DNA of 64,000 nt. Source: Escherichia phage vB_Eco_F25. The DNA lies in the sequence record OP870144.1, one strand, 5' to 3'. Position numbers and translations under genes: made by a program. Below the pieces are notes generated by a model. That model did not search any database. It was not told the origin of the DNA and saw only the letters and a list, made by a program, of their open reading frames with translations. Numbering within the stretch: position 1 is the first letter of the stretch; every line of letters starts with the position of its first letter. Below, in pieces: positions 3,143 to 61,686 of this stretch.

Positions 3143-4147
3143 TTAGCTCACCAACTCAATCCAAGCCGGACGAAGTACATCTTGTACCATTTTAACTAAT
3201 TCCTTTTTAACCAAAGAAGGATTATCCGCTTGAGTTAGAGTAATACCTTCACGAGAAGTTTCTTCCAAAATATCTTGAACAGTTAATCCCATCACCTTTC
3301 CAAAATCTTTTGGACCAATTTCGCCAATTTTGGAAATAACGTTATTTACTCGGTTCAATGTAACATAACAAGCTAAAATTCCAACCAATTTATTATCAGC
3401 TTCTGACAATTCAACTTTAGCTTTAATAGGCTTATCAGACTTTTTCTTTTCACTAAATTTAGAGTTCTTGCATTTAATCGCTACGCGATTGCCATTAGGC
3501 ATCCAAGAAGGATAGCAAGGTTTCAATACATATCCTTCAGCAGTAAATACTTCGCCTTTTGCTTCGGCATTCCAGACGCATTTATTTGCATCAACTAATC
3601 CAGCATGGTCTACTGTAAAATTATAATCTTGGACGACAGAATCTAAATCATTTGGCAATTTAATAAGCTCTTCAAATTTACCGCGACCTAAAAGTGGAGC
3701 CATTTTAAATTTAAATGTATTACAGAATGATTCCATCATATAATCATCGACATAAGTCACATCACCGCTTTCGGTAGTAACAATAATGTCAAATACATAA
3801 AAATCTTTATCGCCATAATCGACATTCTTCTGAATGCCAGGTCCAGCGAATTCGCCAAAAACTTGATAAGATACAACTGCTGAAGTTTCCATAATATCTT
3901 GTACTGCTTTAATGGAATCAGTGTAATTCTTTAGAATAATTTCATACCCAAAGAAATCTTCAGCAGGAAGAATAGGACCAGTACGTTTAGCACAAGTTGC
4001 TTTATCGCGCTCAATAATCAACGAGAAATTTGTACCATGAATCTTTTCACGAGCTACCCATTCGCCGCCAGTCAATCCTAAACTGTAAAGTTTTTCAATG
4101 AATTTAGAATTGTAATGATTTTCAAGACTGCTATACTTTTTAAACAT
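3143..4147 (-). CDS. rnlB: RNA ligase 2 (Rnl2)
   Basis: 334-aa ORF; N-terminus [43 protein letters not shown] contains the ligase KxHGxN nucleotidyl-transfer motif; T4 position between 24 and hoc. Confidence 0.9.
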
Positions 4148-4725: not shown

Positions 4726-5856
4726 TTATGGATAGGTATAGATGATACCAGTTTCTAAAGCAGTTTTATGAATGATGTATCCATTACGCGATTCTTGAAC
4801 ATCAACTTCTGGATAGTCTTTCATCATCTTCTGAAGAGTGTAACGATGCAGATAGTATTTACTGTCTGGATCTTCAGTTTTCCAATCTTTACCTTCTTCA
4901 GTCATTTTTTGGATTTCATCCATAACCCACCAACCGCACCAGATATAAGCTGAGCTACGATGTGGAAGAGGATGAACATAAGGTAATTCACCTTCTGGTT
5001 CCGGAGCAACTTTATCAGTTACCTGAACTTGACCTTCTGCTGTAATAGTTTTGCTATCATAATCAGTGGCAGTAACAGTTGCAGTAACTTCAATAGTTTG
5101 ACTTCCAATAGATGATGTATCAACGGTGTATACATTAGTTGACCCTTCTACAGGAGAAGAATCTTTCTTCCATGAATACGTAATTTGCGCTTCTTCCGGA
5201 GCATCAGTAACATTAGCAGTAAATGTAGCCGAAGCATCTTGCTGAACATTAATAGAAGGAGGAGTCAATGTAACCTGTGGATTCATTGTCTTCTTATTAA
5301 CTGTCAATGATACTTCATTAGAAGTAACTTCTTTTGCATCATAATCTGCCGCGGTTACTTGAGCTACGCATTTAATTCTTTTTACTCCACTTGTAGTTGG
5401 AGTGTAATTGAATGTAGCACTAGTTGCTTCGCCCACAGGAGAACCGTCAACGTACCATTGATATGTAGCAGTTGCGCCCGATGGCTGCGAAGCTAAAGCA
5501 GCAGTAAATTCAACAGCTGTTCCAATTACTCCTTCTGGAGGACTATTAGGAGTTACAGCTAAAGTAGTTGTCTGTGTCTTATTTTGAACTGTGATAGTTG
5601 TAGTAGCTTCTGCTGTTTCAGCATCAGTATCTGGAACTGGGTTTGTTGCAACTACTTTAATAGTTTTTTGACCGGCAGGTCCTTTTAATACATAACTAAA
5701 AGTTGCAGATGTTTCTTCCTGTGGAACATCATCTACAGTCCAAGCATATGTAATAGGTCCATCTCCAGTTTGACCACTGGGTGTAGCAGTAAACTGCTGA
5801 GTCTGATCTATAACTCCAGTAGGTGTTTTAGGAGTTATATCAACTGTAAAAGCCAT
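4726..5856 (-). CDS. hoc: Highly immunogenic outer capsid protein Hoc
   Basis: 376-aa ORF (T4 Hoc length); Thr/Val-rich tandem Ig-like domains followed by a Trp-rich C-terminal capsid-binding segment; position between 24.3 and inh. Confidence 0.88.
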   Translation of the reverse strand: MAFTVDITPKTPTGVIDQTQQFTATPSGQTGDGPITYAWTVDDVPQEETSATFSYVLKGPAGQKTIKVVATNPVPDTDAETAEATTTITVQNKTQTTTLAVTPNSPPEGVIGTAVEFTAALASQPSGATATYQWYVDGSPVGEATSATFNYTPTTSGVKRIKCVAQVTAADYDAKEVTSNEVSLTVNKKTMNPQVTLTPPSINVQQDASATFTANVTDAPEEAQITYSWKKDSSPVEGSTNVYTVDTSSIGSQTIEVTATVTATDYDSKTITAEGQVQVTDKVAPEPEGELPYVHPLPHRSSAYIWCGWWVMDEIQKMTEEGKDWKTEDPDSKYYLHRYTLQKMMKDYPEVDVQESRNGYIIHKTALETGIIYTYP

Positions 5857-16285: not shown

Positions 16286-17250
16286 TGTATTCTTTAGAGG
16301 AATTTAATAATCAAGCAATAAACGCAGATTTCCAACGTAATAATATGTTTAGCTGCGTTTTTGCAACAACTCCATCAACTAAAAGCTCTTCGTTGATAAG
16401 TTCAATTAGCAACTTTTCTTATAATAACTTGGGCCTAAATTCAAATTGGTTAGGATTAACTCAAGGTGATATTAATCAGGGAATTACCACGCTAATTACA
16501 GCTGGCACACAAAAACTAATAAGAAAATCAGGAGTCAGTAAATATCTTATTGGTGCCATGAGTCAACGTACTGTCCAGAGTTTATTAGGCTCATTTACAG
16601 TTGGTACATATTTAATTGACTTCTTTAACATGGCATATAACTCATCTGGATTGATGATATACTCTGTAAAAATGCCAGAGAATAGATTATCCTATGAAAC
16701 TGACTGGAACTATAATTCTCCTAATATTCGTATAACTGGGAGAGAATTAGACCCTTTGGTTATTTCATTTAGAATGGATTCAGAAGCTTGTAACTATCGT
16801 GCAATGCAAGACTGGGTTAACTCCGTTCAAGACCCAGTAACTGGATTACGTGCTTTGCCACAAGATGTCGAGGCAGATATTCAGGTTAATCTTCATTCTC
16901 GTAATGGATTGCCTCATACTGCGGTGATGTTCACCGGATGCATTCCAATATCAGTGAGCGCTCCTGAGTTATCATATGATGGAGATAACCAAATAACTAC
17001 ATTTGATGTTACTTTTGCGTATAGAGTGATGCAGGCTGGAGCAGTTGATAGACAAGCTGCGCTTGAATGGCTTGAATCTGCTACTATAAATGGTATTCAA
17101 AGCGTTCTCGGAAATAGTGGAGGTGTTACTGGACTATCTAATTCGCTTTCACGACTCAGTAGATTAGGTGGAACTGCAGGAAGCATTTCAAACATTAATA
17201 CTATGACAGGAATTGTCAATTCGCAAAGTAAAATATTAGGAGCAATATAA
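16285..17250 (+). CDS. 54: Baseplate tail-tube initiator gp54
   Basis: 321-aa ORF overlapping gene 48 stop; followed by strong bidirectional terminator hairpin. Confidence 0.92.
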   Translation: MYSLEEFNNQAINADFQRNNMFSCVFATTPSTKSSSLISSISNFSYNNLGLNSNWLGLTQGDINQGITTLITAGTQKLIRKSGVSKYLIGAMSQRTVQSLLGSFTVGTYLIDFFNMAYNSSGLMIYSVKMPENRLSYETDWNYNSPNIRITGRELDPLVISFRMDSEACNYRAMQDWVNSVQDPVTGLRALPQDVEADIQVNLHSRNGLPHTAVMFTGCIPISVSAPELSYDGDNQITTFDVTFAYRVMQAGAVDRQAALEWLESATINGIQSVLGNSGGVTGLSNSLSRLSRLGGTAGSISNINTMTGIVNSQSKILGAI

Positions 17251-17254
17251 CAAT

Positions 17255-17285
17255 GGGGACCGAAAGGTCCCCATATTTTTATTTA
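17255..17285. terminator. Bidirectional terminator between gene 54 (+) and the alt.-3-like ORF (-)
   Basis: Hairpin GGGGACC-GAAA-GGTCCCC followed by ATATTTTT. Confidence 0.7.
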
Positions 17286-17569
17286 CGGAATGAAATGAAA
17301 GCAGCAACTGAAGCAACTAAACTGTCTTCAATATAAACTTCAATTTTTACCGGAGCTTCTGACTCAAATTTACCTGTTACTACACCCTGAAAAATACTTT
17401 CAGTCTGTTCTGGCTTTGAAAAATTTTCAGAAGGAAAAATTCCAAATTTTTTATCTGTTCCGAAAATTTTGATAAATTCATCATAAACTGCTTCATTAAA
17501 AGCGTTATCAGCAGGAATAACGCCTTCAACTACAAGTTCTTGACCTAAAAAGCGTAAAGAAGATTTCAT
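17279..17569 (-). CDS. Hypothetical protein (positional equivalent of T4 alt.-3)
   Basis: 96-aa ORF downstream of an early promoter at 17601-17630. Confidence 0.55.
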   Translation of the reverse strand: MKSSLRFLGQELVVEGVIPADNAFNEAVYDEFIKIFGTDKKFGIFPSENFSKPEQTESIFQGVVTGKFESEAPVKIEVYIEDSLVASVAAFISFRK

Positions 17570-17580
17570 TTTGTGTTCCT

Positions 17581-17632
17581 CATGTTATGTTAGTAAGACT
17601 ACTATAACACAACACGAGGGACTTGTAAACTA
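17581..17632. repeat. Copy 1 of a roughly 50-bp early promoter / 5'-leader cassette (partner at 31311-31362)
   Basis: CATGTTATGTtAGTAAGACTACTATAACACAACAcGAGGGACTTGTAAAC, identical to the copy upstream of alc except for 2 positions. Confidence 0.7.
17601..17630 (-). promoter_or_regulatory. Early promoter (GTTTACA-17-TATAGT) upstream of the alt.-3-like ORF
   Basis: Minus strand GTTTACAagtccctcgtgttgtgtTATAGT; near-identical to the alc promoter at 31333-31362. Confidence 0.6.
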
Positions 17633-17989
17633 CATTTTGAACTTTTAGTACGCGTAATAGGCATGCGTCGATTTTATACTGTTTCATTGTTTGAAGAGCA
17701 GTATCAAAAACAGCATTAATGACACCAATTGGATTTCCACCCAAGTTTTTAAGCTTAACTAATGATAGTTTCTCATTAACACCTATCATTACGATATGCA
17801 TCATTTTGTCGCCTGGTTTAACGTTTTATCTGTATCACCGCCAGAGGTGTATGTACAAAATCTAAATCCAGGAAGCACGCTTTCTTCGCCGGCTTGAATA
17901 GCAAAAATTTGTGGTATTTTATGCTTAGGATTTAAGTTAACAACCGGCGCCGAAGCGCCGTCAAATAATTCTGTAATAAGTTCCATGAT

Positions 17990-20077
17990 TTATCCTTGAA
18001 CGAACTTGTAAGGCATGTTTGCAATATCTATGCAAGACGCAATAATTCCAAGAGATGATTCTACTTTCTGTTTAACATTTGATGAAACAAATGATGCAAA
18101 GTCAACTCTATCTTCTATATCACCTGTCATTGTAACCAATTCACCAGTTTCCATTAAATGGTCTCCGTCATAGATTACCGATTCGGTGAGTTCTTCTGTG
18201 GTCATAACTTCAGCTTGAATGAGTTTTGTATTATTAGATGTTGTTCCGTCATTATTAGAAGCATCAGTTATTTTATTAACTTTGACCATCAATCCGCGCG
18301 GTAGAATAACTTCAGCTTCTGTTGCTATTCCGAGACTTCCTGGATATACAACATTAACTTTATGAGCTCCATCAATTGCCCATCCTATTTGAACTTTAAC
18401 GTATTCAGGATTTTCTTTATACGCTCTTATTTCGCTTGGATTAATAGTTATTCCTTCTTCATTTTTATCAACTGTCAATTCATTACGAGCTTCTGGTTCT
18501 AAAAGACCAATACCAGCATGTGTAATTCCAAAACGTCCAAAAATGATAGGAGTTAAAGAAGTAGATACAAAATTTCTGAAATAGAACACTTTATTTTTAA
18601 CTAGTGCTTCGTATATAGGAGCAGTCATGCTTTGAGCACGATAAACTGTAATGCCTTCTGGTATACGGTCACCATTTTCAAAAGCTGAATCTAAGTTATT
18701 TATAGCAGATTCAATTTCTTTTTCACTCATTACATCATATCGTTCTGGATTGTAACGACCCAAAAGAAGATTATTGATGTCAGTATATCCTGAACCACAA
18801 TACTCTCTAATGCCGCGCTTTTGTGATGGAGTATATTTAGAACCATCACGGGCAATAGTAATATCAATCATTGGACCTGCACCAATTCCAGAAAAACTGT
18901 AAATCATTCGTTTGAGGAATTTAGTTTTTGCTGCGTTCCAGGAATTTTTAGTTATTTCTTCCCAGACTTCATCTGGTTGTCCTTTACGATTTTTATTATG
19001 ATTAGCAAGCCATTTATCTTTATAATCTTCAAAGAATTGATTTACAGCTGCTGCGTATTTCTCTAAACATTTTATTGAAGTAGTTGGTTCATTTTTAATT
19101 GCATTAAAAATTACTTCTTTAATTTTTTCTGAAACTTCATTAACCTCACTTTTTGAAAAGAATTTATAGTCATAGTGAAGTTCATCTGCGGTTCCTTCGG
19201 CAATAATTTTTGCTGCCTTAGTTTTAGAAGCTAATGAATTAATTCCAAGCTTCATTTCTTCTGCTTCGGGAATTAAAGGAGCTGTAGCAGGTTTATTGAA
19301 ATTAGCTGCGGTAGATTCATATTTCTGGAATAATTCGCTTTCAAATCTAGAAGATTCTAATGACTGACTTTGCGCAATTGCTCTACGGGAAATTTTAACT
19401 TTAACGATTACAGCTTGGTCAGAACGTTTATCATTTTCTTGTGCAATAGATGCTGCAATTGCCTCATTTTTAGTTACTTGGGCTCCAGTATCTTTATTGA
19501 TATAAACATCACCGACTTTTGATTCAACTTTAGTAAAGAGCTCGGTACTAATTTCCGGAACTCCTGGAATGTCTTCTAGTGATACATTTTTGCGATGTAT
19601 AAGAATATATGCGTACTTTTTATCATAATCCCAGAGTTCCTTAAGAAGGACGTATCTACCACCTGAACGACTACGGATAAGTCTATCAGCAATAACTTGA
19701 ATTTGTCGAGCTTGGCCAGCAGTTTTAGACTTAAGAATACGAAGCATACAAGCATCAATTTTATATTGACGCATTGTTTGCATTGCAACAGTAAAAACTG
19801 AATTGATATAATTAATTGGGCTTGGACCAAGACCTTTTAATTTAGCAATTGAACCTTTAGCAGTTAATGTAAAAGGAACAATATGCATCATTTTATCGCC
19901 CATCTTTAAATCGCGATTAGTATCACCTCCAGATGTATAGGTACATAAACGAAAGCCTGGTTGTTCAATTGCATCATCAACATGAACTGAAAAAATTTGT
20001 GGTATTTTCTTCTTTGGATTTAAGTTTGTAATCGGAAGAGTAGTATCTTCGTCAAATAATTCTGTAATGAGTTCCAT
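17990..20077 (-). CDS. alt: Alt ADP-ribosyltransferase (virion-packaged, modifies host RNA polymerase)
   Basis: 695-aa ORF from second ATG (GAGG RBS 5 nt upstream); sequence MELITELFDEDTTLPITNLNPKKKIPQIFSVHVDD… recognised; late promoter TATAAATA on - strand at 20101-20108. Confidence 0.92.
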   Translation of the reverse strand: MELITELFDEDTTLPITNLNPKKKIPQIFSVHVDDAIEQPGFRLCTYTSGGDTNRDLKMGDKMMHIVPFTLTAKGSIAKLKGLGPSPINYINSVFTVAMQTMRQYKIDACMLRILKSKTAGQARQIQVIADRLIRSRSGGRYVLLKELWDYDKKYAYILIHRKNVSLEDIPGVPEISTELFTKVESKVGDVYINKDTGAQVTKNEAIAASIAQENDKRSDQAVIVKVKISRRAIAQSQSLESSRFESELFQKYESTAANFNKPATAPLIPEAEEMKLGINSLASKTKAAKIIAEGTADELHYDYKFFSKSEVNEVSEKIKEVIFNAIKNEPTTSIKCLEKYAAAVNQFFEDYKDKWLANHNKNRKGQPDEVWEEITKNSWNAAKTKFLKRMIYSFSGIGAGPMIDITIARDGSKYTPSQKRGIREYCGSGYTDINNLLLGRYNPERYDVMSEKEIESAINNLDSAFENGDRIPEGITVYRAQSMTAPIYEALVKNKVFYFRNFVSTSLTPIIFGRFGITHAGIGLLEPEARNELTVDKNEEGITINPSEIRAYKENPEYVKVQIGWAIDGAHKVNVVYPGSLGIATEAEVILPRGLMVKVNKITDASNNDGTTSNNTKLIQAEVMTTEELTESVIYDGDHLMETGELVTMTGDIEDRVDFASFVSSNVKQKVESSLGIIASCIDIANMPYKFVQG

Positions 20078-20100
20078 CATATCCTCTCTAGTGTTTATTC

Positions 20101-24463: not shown

Positions 24464-24494
24464 ATATAATATCATATCCTGTACCAAAGTAAAC
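24464..24494 (-). promoter_or_regulatory. Early promoter upstream of the 121-aa ORF
   Basis: Minus strand GTTTAC…TATTAT with AT-rich upstream region. Confidence 0.5.
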
Positions 24495-31304: not shown

Positions 31305-31310
31305 AAAGTC

Positions 31311-31362
31311 CTCATGTTATGTCAGTAAGACTACTATAACACAACATGAGGGACTTGTAAAC
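31311..31362. repeat. Copy 2 of the early promoter / 5'-leader cassette (partner at 17581-17632)
   Basis: CTCATGTTATGTcAGTAAGACTACTATAACACAACAtGAGGGACTTGTAAAC. Confidence 0.7.
31333..31362 (-). promoter_or_regulatory. Early promoter upstream of alc
   Basis: Minus strand GTTTACAagtccctcatgttgtgtTATAGT about 30 nt upstream of the alc ATG. Confidence 0.6.
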
Positions 31363-61656: not shown

Positions 61657-61686
61657 ATAATACCACAGAGGAACAGTCTTGTAAAC
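61657..61686 (-). promoter_or_regulatory. Early promoter within the ndd-denB small-ORF cluster
   Basis: Minus strand GTTTACA-17-TATTAT. Confidence 0.5.

Follow-up and report, generated by a model that had tools for sequence, protein, structure and literature searches.

The 64,000-nucleotide (nt) stretch of Escherichia phage vB_Eco_F25 considered here (sequence record OP870144.1, hereafter the window) contains, directly 3' of the gene alt, a short stump of alt-type coding sequence that is split into two open reading frames (ORFs) and adjoins an early promoter. Over positions 17250-18100, T4 and its close relatives show 98.4-98.9% nt identity to the window (T4: 98.4% over 851 nt), and, judged by its sequence, the window belongs to a T4-like Tequatrovirus of the T4 lineage. 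On the minus strand, alt is followed by an ORF of 61 amino acids (aa), an ORF of 74 aa and alt.-3; a bidirectional terminator then precedes gene 54, which lies on the plus strand. The features of the locus are listed below, where alt2 denotes the intact second alt-type gene carried in place of the stump by relatives such as RB27 and T2.

17990-20080, minus strand: alt, intact gene of the virion-packaged ADP-ribosyltransferase, 696 aa from the first of two ATGs (PF03496, E 1.8e-37; named alt in related records).
17801-17986, minus strand: alt.-1, first remnant ORF, 61 aa, made of alt2 codons 1-56 and 5 out-of-frame codons (phrog_23015, E 3.9e-45).
17824-17827, minus strand: frameshift site, a run of four A (A4) against five (A5) in intact alt2 (GATACAAATAAAAACG changed to GATACAGAT-AAAACG), from the window, T4T and two IMG/VR contigs compared with four intact copies.
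17580-17804, minus strand: alt.-2, second remnant ORF, 74 aa (67 aa in T4), made of alt2 codons 62-115 and a junk tail (phrog_15247, E 6.5e-39).
17641-17648, minus strand: deletion junction, the lone copy of a 9-base-pair (bp) repeat, CTAAAAAGT, here CTAAAAGT with one more A lost (comparison with RB27, T4, fPS-90 and IMG/VR contigs).
17631-17640, minus strand: 3' end of alt2, which together with the GT of the junction repeat makes up the last 12 nt of the frame (GTTCAAAATGTA), identical to the alt2 3' end in RB27 and T2.
17577-17630, minus strand: early-promoter and leader cassette of alt.-3, 54 nt, found by pattern search and also present after intact alt2.
17279-17569, minus strand: alt.-3, 96 aa, the gene served by the cassette (DUF5498; PF17602, E 1.4e-64).
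17253-17274, both strands: bidirectional terminator hairpin in the interval between alt.-3 and gene 54 (terminator scan; annotated as a terminator in fPS-90 and PhAPEC2).

A sequence-only reading of this DNA had taken positions 17580-17986 for a partial, frameshifted duplicate of alt, and the presence of a decayed alt-type copy is borne out by protein and DNA comparison. BLASTP aligns the 61-aa ORF with Alt residues 2-63 (58% identity, E 3e-23) and the 74-aa ORF with residues 64-117 (61% identity, E 7e-21), while at the DNA level alt and the remnant share direct repeats of 116 nt (72%), 31 nt (94%) and 23 nt (91%) at a spacing of about 2,088-2,091 nt, with a gapped local alignment spanning about 335 nt. 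In the same line, the PHROG Alt family 802 (phrog_802) is matched at profile positions 2-61 by alt.-1 and 64-118 by alt.-2; the profile cover is thus limited to positions 2-118 out of 674, and the ADP-ribosyltransferase catalytic domain is missing from the remnant. A Pfam search of both remnant ORFs returned no domain, and an Rfam search of the whole window no family. The likeness to the T4 remnants alt.-1 and alt.-2, also suspected in the sequence-only reading, proves to be orthology, the ORFs being about 98% identical at the nt level and lying on the same strand in the same interval between alt and alt.-3. The stump itself is already known and was described long ago by the T4 annotators: the T4T record HM137666 states that alt.-1 and alt.-2 'reflect a deletion and further frame shift in the second copy of gene alt', the T4 record MT984581.1 interprets them as the first part of alt, duplicated and provided with a stop codon and a new start, and Nolan et al. 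2006 considered both as paralogous duplications of alt (PMC1524935). What is added here is the exact anatomy of the junction, the frequency of the deletion (90 of 499 records) and signs that the stump has decayed further.

The source of the stump, however, is not alt itself, as the word duplicate had implied, but its diverged second paralogue alt2. In RB27 and T2, alt is followed by a 2,058-nt alt2 (685 aa, labelled alt.-2 in RB27), a 60-nt gap and alt.-3. The alt2 product shares 42% identity with Alt, and much more over the first 240 residues and the C-terminus; that of RB27 has a Pfam ART domain (E 5.9e-20), and the YR-Q, FVSTSL and EAEVILPRG motifs are kept. Since the remnant is 96-97% identical in nt sequence to the 5' end of alt2 from RB27 and T2, as opposed to about 72% for alt, it derives from alt2 and not from a recent copy of alt. 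More broadly, the intact alt2 genes of RB27, RB14, T2 and others have the same flanks as the stump and are 94-98% identical to it over their first 347 nt, but encode 685 aa with the ART domain, whereas codons 117-680 are missing from the window. A search of the GenBank phage collection with the stump matched 549 records, with a query cover of at least 80% in 497, and in most records the match ends at query base 347, inside a gene labelled 'Alt-like RNA polymerase ADP-ribosyltransferase'. When a probe spanning the junction was used, 90 of 499 records covered at least 80% of it and carry the T4-type deletion allele; the remaining records match the probe only from base 37 onward, where the repeat begins, and the intact alt2 allele is found in about 409 of the 499 (RB27 and T2 were checked directly). 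Scans of IMG/VR yielded the same five T4-like contigs and nothing else, whether made with the DNA pattern or with the Alc and Alt.-3 proteins; the wider sampling is that of the GenBank phage collection. T4 accordingly represents a minority state, about 18% of the Tequatrovirus records having lost a second, probably active, virion-type ADP-ribosyltransferase, a loss that is relevant to studies of Alt targets done only in T4.

The junction retains the trace of this loss. In RB27, CTAAAAAGT occurs at position 3843 of the locus (alt2 codons 114-116) and again 1,699 bp farther on, at position 5542 (20 nt before the stop), whereas T4T, fPS-90, F26, pSe_SNUABM_01 and two IMG/VR contigs read ...GCGTACTAAAAAGTTCAAAATGTAGTTTAC..., that is, a single copy of the repeat followed by the last 12 nt of alt2 including the TAG. 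A direct repeat is thus found at both ends of the undeleted allele and one copy of it at the junction, which makes this a textbook case of the deletions between short direct repeats described by Albertini et al. 1982 (as cited in PMC4122927). The illegitimate recombination proposed in the sequence-only reading therefore holds, in its microhomology form. The right endpoint of the deletion ends 10 nt upstream of the -35 box of the alt.-3 promoter, GTTTAC, whose first base is the G of the alt2 TAG stop; at the left endpoint, no promoter-like sequence was found. As the deleted length is not a multiple of three, the reading frame beyond the junction is junk, and the tail of alt.-2 runs across both the junction and the promoter. 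The ATG start codons of alt2 and alt.-3 lie 2,118 nt apart in the intact allele, 418 nt in the T4-type allele and 417 nt in the window. The loss of one base from the A5 run, common to all deletion-bearing genomes examined, splits the stump into the two ORFs, which overlap by ATGA. Both the junction and this -1 frameshift are common to T4 and the window, which differ in the additional A lost from the junction repeat of the window; because of this loss, alt.-2 ends 7 codons later here than in T4.

Taken together, these data make it very probable that the stump is what a microhomology deletion left of alt2, with the resident promoter of alt.-3 at its end. The Tequatrovirus ancestor would have possessed the tandem paralogues alt and alt2, followed by alt.-3. 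In the T4 lineage, slipped mispairing or illegitimate recombination between the two CTAAAAAGT repeats would then have removed 1,699 bp of alt2, so that codon 116 was fused out of frame to the few final codons of the gene. The loss of one base in the A5 run, at codons 54-55, would subsequently have split the stump into alt.-1 and alt.-2, and a further A would have been lost at the junction in the window, altering only the junk tail of alt.-2. The deletion presumably preceded the frameshifts.

Regarding the promoter, the 54-nt cassette comprises the -35 box GTTTAC (17630-17625), a 17-nt spacer, the -10 box TATAGT (17606-17601) and the Shine-Dalgarno sequence GAGGA (17581-17577), and it is the best promoter-like site on its strand (10/12, with TG). 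In RB27 and T2, it occupies the 60-nt gap between alt2 and alt.-3, the alt2 TAG overlapping GTTTAC in the same way, and in Dhakavirus, Mosigvirus, Marfavirus and Kanagawavirus the alt-type gene that precedes alt.-3 is likewise followed immediately by a promoter, starting at TAGTTTAC. As it also occurs in these four other genera, a promoter at this site is ancestral. The cassette provides alt.-3 with its resident early promoter, its leader and its ribosome-binding site; it is not part of the scar and was left untouched by the deletion. A second copy lies elsewhere in the window:

31309-31362, minus strand: second copy of the cassette, 13.7 kb away, between the stop of rnlA on its 5' side and alc (PF17527, E 1.5e-90) on its 3' side, 52/54 identical to the alt.-3 copy.

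The near-identity of the two promoter segments had been noticed from the letters alone and stands, with an extent of 54 nt, from the -35 box to the Shine-Dalgarno sequence, instead of 50. The 54-nt pattern has exactly two occurrences in the window, which differ from each other at 2 of the 54 positions, and none in 100 shuffles. Besides, when the 27 promoter-like sites of the window are compared with each other, the alc/alt.-3 pair reaches 52/54, the next best pair 32/54 and the median pair 19/54. This near-identity of the two copies is seen in phages with and without the deletion, and the resemblance to the alc promoter stems from an event separate from the deletion.

The sequence-only reading had gone further and considered promoter-mediated recombination, with the cassette as a breakpoint. 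The stump would then have been made by recombination through the early-promoter cassette, in an exchange with the alc-proximal copy resembling that of the promoter-early stem-loop (PeSL) cassettes, and the promoter would be part of the scar. Deletions and swaps in T4-type phages have indeed been reported to occur through PeSL-type cassettes (PMC2839356, PMC4122927), the cassette is duplicated at a distance, and only 10 nt, in an A/T-rich stretch, separate the right breakpoint from the -35 box. Nevertheless, the same cassette is found at the same place after the intact alt2 of RB27 and T2, both breakpoints coincide with the 9-bp repeat inside the alt2 frame, of which the last 17 nt including the stop survive, the left breakpoint has no promoter-like sequence, and an exchange between direct cassettes would remove 13.7 kb including the DNA ligase gene. 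Such an origin is highly improbable, and this part of the sequence-only reading is not supported. Still less probable is the view of the older T4 annotation, in which the duplication never comprised more than the first part of alt and no full-length second copy existed in the lineage. This view has in its favor the note in MT984581.1 and the wording of Nolan et al. 2006 (PMC1524935), but it leaves unexplained that the stump matches the 5' end of a full-length alt2 so much better than it matches alt, that the last 17 nt of alt2 are retained, and that the junction coincides with a repeat which the intact allele has at both ends; the T4 note is, in this respect, less accurate than the T4T note.

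Another question is whether the two ORFs are still of use to the phage. alt.-1 and/or alt.-2 could be maintained as functional small proteins, for instance a prohead-carried MELITE peptide or a competitor for Alt packaging, and several observations weigh on that side against a mere remnant: both ORFs are open in T4, in the window and in two IMG/VR contigs, and each has its own PHROG family. In addition, alt.-1 is preceded by a good Shine-Dalgarno sequence, AAGGA, 6 nt upstream of its ATG, alt.-2 starts within the ATGA overlap, and both lie on the late alt transcript (late promoter TATAAATA, 20108-20101). alt.-1 also keeps MELITE, the region of Alt that is cut off by the prohead protease; the gp21 protease removes the N-terminal propeptide of Alt, and proteins enter T4 heads by means of N-terminal targeting sequences (PMC9026906). 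An N-terminal Alt fragment could thus possibly be produced from alt.-1, with LFDGASAPVVNLNPK and IPQIFAIQAGEESVLPGFR as its peptides. However, codon 6 of alt.-1 is changed from GAA to TAA in F26, pSe_SNUABM_01 and fPS-90, three of the seven deletion-bearing genomes examined, which truncates the product after MELIT; since three relatives carry this premature stop, any alt.-1 product is dispensable. Through the further frameshift, alt.-2 has one C-terminal tail in T4 (67 aa) and another in the window (74 aa), neither ORF has a Pfam domain, and about 80% of the relatives carry the full gene instead. A maintained function of these peptides is accordingly very unlikely, and the stump is read as a decaying pseudogene. 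Once its frame is restored, it differs from RB27 alt2 by 10 synonymous and 4 non-synonymous codons, differences that are too few, and for the most part too old relative to the deletion, to bear on selection. A programmed frameshift fusing alt.-1 and alt.-2 was also considered and rejected: the ATGA overlap suggests restart, a +1 shift would be needed, there is no known slippery motif, and alt.-1 is knocked out in relatives.

Some side observations concern the same ORFs. In the annotations of F26, pSe_SNUABM_01 and fPS-90, only alt.-2 is called, in some as 'ADP-ribosyltransferase'. In two other deletion-bearing phages, vB_EcoM_F1 and FL23, the stump match is 350 and 360 nt long, compared to 358-359 nt, with 96.7% and 94.2% identity, respectively, which suggests further small indels in their remnants. 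Finally, a terminator-like hairpin, TAAAGGCCTTCGGGCCTTTA (20132-20113), stands 5' of alt and is directly followed by the late-promoter motif TATAAATA; in view of this arrangement, the remnant ORFs are probably transcribed late, together with alt.

Beyond the stump, both copies of the cassette are predicted to fold into RNA hairpins:

17575-17622, minus strand: predicted RNA hairpin at alt.-3, folding energy (dG) -23.0 kcal/mol, z -5.2.
About 31306-31356, minus strand: predicted RNA hairpin at alc, dG -24.8 kcal/mol, z -4.9.

No shuffled sequence folded as well as either of them. The 5' arm is formed by the promoter spacer, the -10 box and the presumed transcription start site are apical, and the 3' arm holds the Shine-Dalgarno sequence, of which GAGG is paired; no terminator-like U-run was found after the cassette hairpin. 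From its position, the start site is expected near 17594, which is 3' of the 5' arm. An RNA begun at the cassette promoter would therefore be devoid of the 5' arm and have its GAGGA free, whereas in a read-through RNA coming from alt/alt2 or rnlA the GAGGA would be paired. Only transcripts begun at the cassette's own promoter would then be translated, the read-through RNA of middle or late origin remaining silent. That the hairpin works as such a translational gate is a tentative proposal drawn from folding predictions. Cleavage of the leader by RegB was considered as well and rejected, as the Shine-Dalgarno sequence GAGGA has no GGAG target.

Related hairpins were observed at other early promoters of the window, designated here by the position of their -35 box. 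At 61686 (minus strand), the spacer CTGTTCCTC pairs with GAGGAACAG, which holds the Shine-Dalgarno sequence (dG -23.2 kcal/mol, z -4.2); at 24494 and 28037 (minus strand), shorter hairpins enclose the -10 box only (z -4.7 and -3.7, respectively); and at the early promoters 45158 and 56080, there is no such hairpin. This suggests that hairpins enclosing the -10 box are a general design, consistent with PeSLs.

The comparison with other phages bears on the history of the two copies. The arrangement of GTTTAC, arm, -10 box and Shine-Dalgarno-bearing arm recurs upstream of alc in STP4-a (Gelderlandvirus), UFV01 (Karamvirus), Mineola (Jiaodavirus), Bp7 (Dhakavirus), HMGUkp2 (unclassified Straboviridae) and CHI14 (Winklervirus), where folds of the individual sequences, with shuffles, give z values from -3.2 to -7.3. 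The stems differ in sequence (CCGTTTTGTT/AACCAAACGG, CCATTTGGTT/AACCAAATGG, CATCAG/CTGATG, CGTTTGTT/AACAAACG and CATTTCGTT/AACGAAATG), and the alc hairpin is kept, with these differing stems, in seven genera of Tevenvirinae; upstream of RB69 alc and TH54 alc, the hairpin was not found. The alt.-3 promoters of four other genera show only a short hairpin within the spacer (z +0.6 to -2.0). Within eight Tequatrovirus genomes, the alc and alt.-3 copies are 49-54/54 identical, and the polymorphic alt.-3 copy occurs in mosaic haplotypes (TTCCTTA or TCCCTCG; TATAATAAT or TATAGTAGT), one of which equals the alc copy. The arm GTCC of the alt.-3 copy in the window is of the alc type; it pairs with GGAC at alc and leaves a C-A mismatch with GGAAC at alt.-3, while the alt.-3 copy of T2 has GTTCC and pairs perfectly.

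Whether the cassette was copied from alc to alt.-3 in the Tequatrovirus ancestor, thereby replacing a promoter without the long hairpin, is on these comparisons an evenly balanced matter, and some lineages have perhaps been re-homogenised or converted since. The competing explanation is that the resemblance of the two copies reflects one old duplication under purifying selection, or the shared consensus of early promoters, with neither directional transfer nor conversion. Both copies occur, 91-100% identical, in each of the eight Tequatrovirus genomes, an extended consensus is common to the early promoters of T4, and the two loci of Mosigvirus also share a promoter and leader type, albeit a different one. 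Several points count against the transfer and against compensatory change at alc: strong purifying selection would also hold two old copies 91-100% alike; the evidence for the direction of transfer and for conversion comes from 8 Tequatrovirus genomes plus about a dozen loci of outgroups; RNAalifold found no consensus structure for eight alc leaders aligned with MAFFT, since stems from different genera do not fall into register; and the compensatory-change argument comes from folds of individual sequences, which are weaker than a formal covariation test. On the other hand, 52/54 is far from the 32/54 of the next most similar promoter pair, the identity extends to non-consensus positions of the spacer and leader, one of the mosaic alt.-3 haplotypes is identical to the alc copy, and the long hairpin is ancestral at alc and absent at alt.-3 outside Tequatrovirus. 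On balance, the competing explanation is rather unlikely but still a fair one. The wider idea, namely that the alc/alt.-3 cassette is a transplantable 'immediate-early only' gate, kept by compensatory change at alc and copied to alt.-3, might be right but falls somewhat short of an even chance.

Two further observations were made on these promoters. In Mosigvirus and Dhakavirus, the alc and alt.-3 promoters share another cassette, made of GTTTACAARCAC, a short in-spacer hairpin, TACTAT and the leader ATCAACAACAYGAGGA, which was seen in RB69 alc, RB69 alt.-3, PhAPEC2 and FB. Upstream of alc in Escherichia virus TH54 (Gaprivervirus), there is no GTTTAC promoter, and the sequence is unlike the end of rnlA elsewhere.

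The cassette recalls two systems described in T4-type phages. The first one is that of the PeSL cassettes (Arbiol et al. 2010, PMC2839356; Comeau et al. 2014, PMC4122927), whose PST/T4 promoter consensus is TTTACW-N17-TAYWAT (PMC4122927). The sequence TTTACA-N17-TATAGT, with its upstream TG, fits this consensus, a likeness of sequence only; moreover, the stem-loop overlaps the -10 box, the Shine-Dalgarno sequence and the ATG are at the 3' end, the element is repeated at unrelated loci and it adjoins an indel. By this anatomy, the cassette can be classed as a PeSL-type element. It differs in that the deletion did not go through it, both breakpoints being in alt2 coding sequence, and in that its 3' arm holds the Shine-Dalgarno sequence, suggesting a translational role instead of the terminator or attenuator role proposed for PeSLs.

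The second system is that of the T4 genes e, soc, 49 and I-TevI, in which the ribosome-binding site is hidden in long transcripts and an internal late promoter gives a translatable RNA (PMC3014915). Here too, the Shine-Dalgarno sequence is predicted to lie in a helix whose 5' strand is upstream of or across the promoter, but the promoter is of the early sigma-70 type and not a late one (TATAAATA), and the predicted effect would confine translation to the immediate-early and not to the late period. Neither alc nor alt.-3 is among the cases listed in the review of Uzan and Miller 2010 (PMC3014915). The putative gate would thus be a variant of a known T4 mechanism. If true, it would extend the mechanism of e, soc, 49 and I-TevI to early promoters and give the PeSL stem-loops a translational function, and the alc/alt.-3 cassette would offer a small, testable case of a promoter-embedded hairpin that hides a ribosome-binding site and was moved between loci.

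Finally, minor observations concern alt itself and the annotations. Two ATGs stand at the start of alt (20074-20080; MMELITE...), the first of which gives 696 aa, and the annotated length of Alt is 682 aa in T4 and 697 aa in RB27, T2 and F26; the alt of the window is hence of the 696/697-aa type, as in these three phages, and that of T4 of the 682-aa type. A length of 7 residues is given for the N-terminal propeptide of Alt in a review (PMC9026906), which would fit a cleavage after MMELITE if the first ATG is used. In the T2 record AP018813.1, many product names have clearly been mis-transferred and the annotation is not trustworthy: for instance, a 117-aa ORF at the pseT.3 position is called 'DNA ligase', the true ligase 'hypothetical protein', and small early ORFs 'major capsid protein'.

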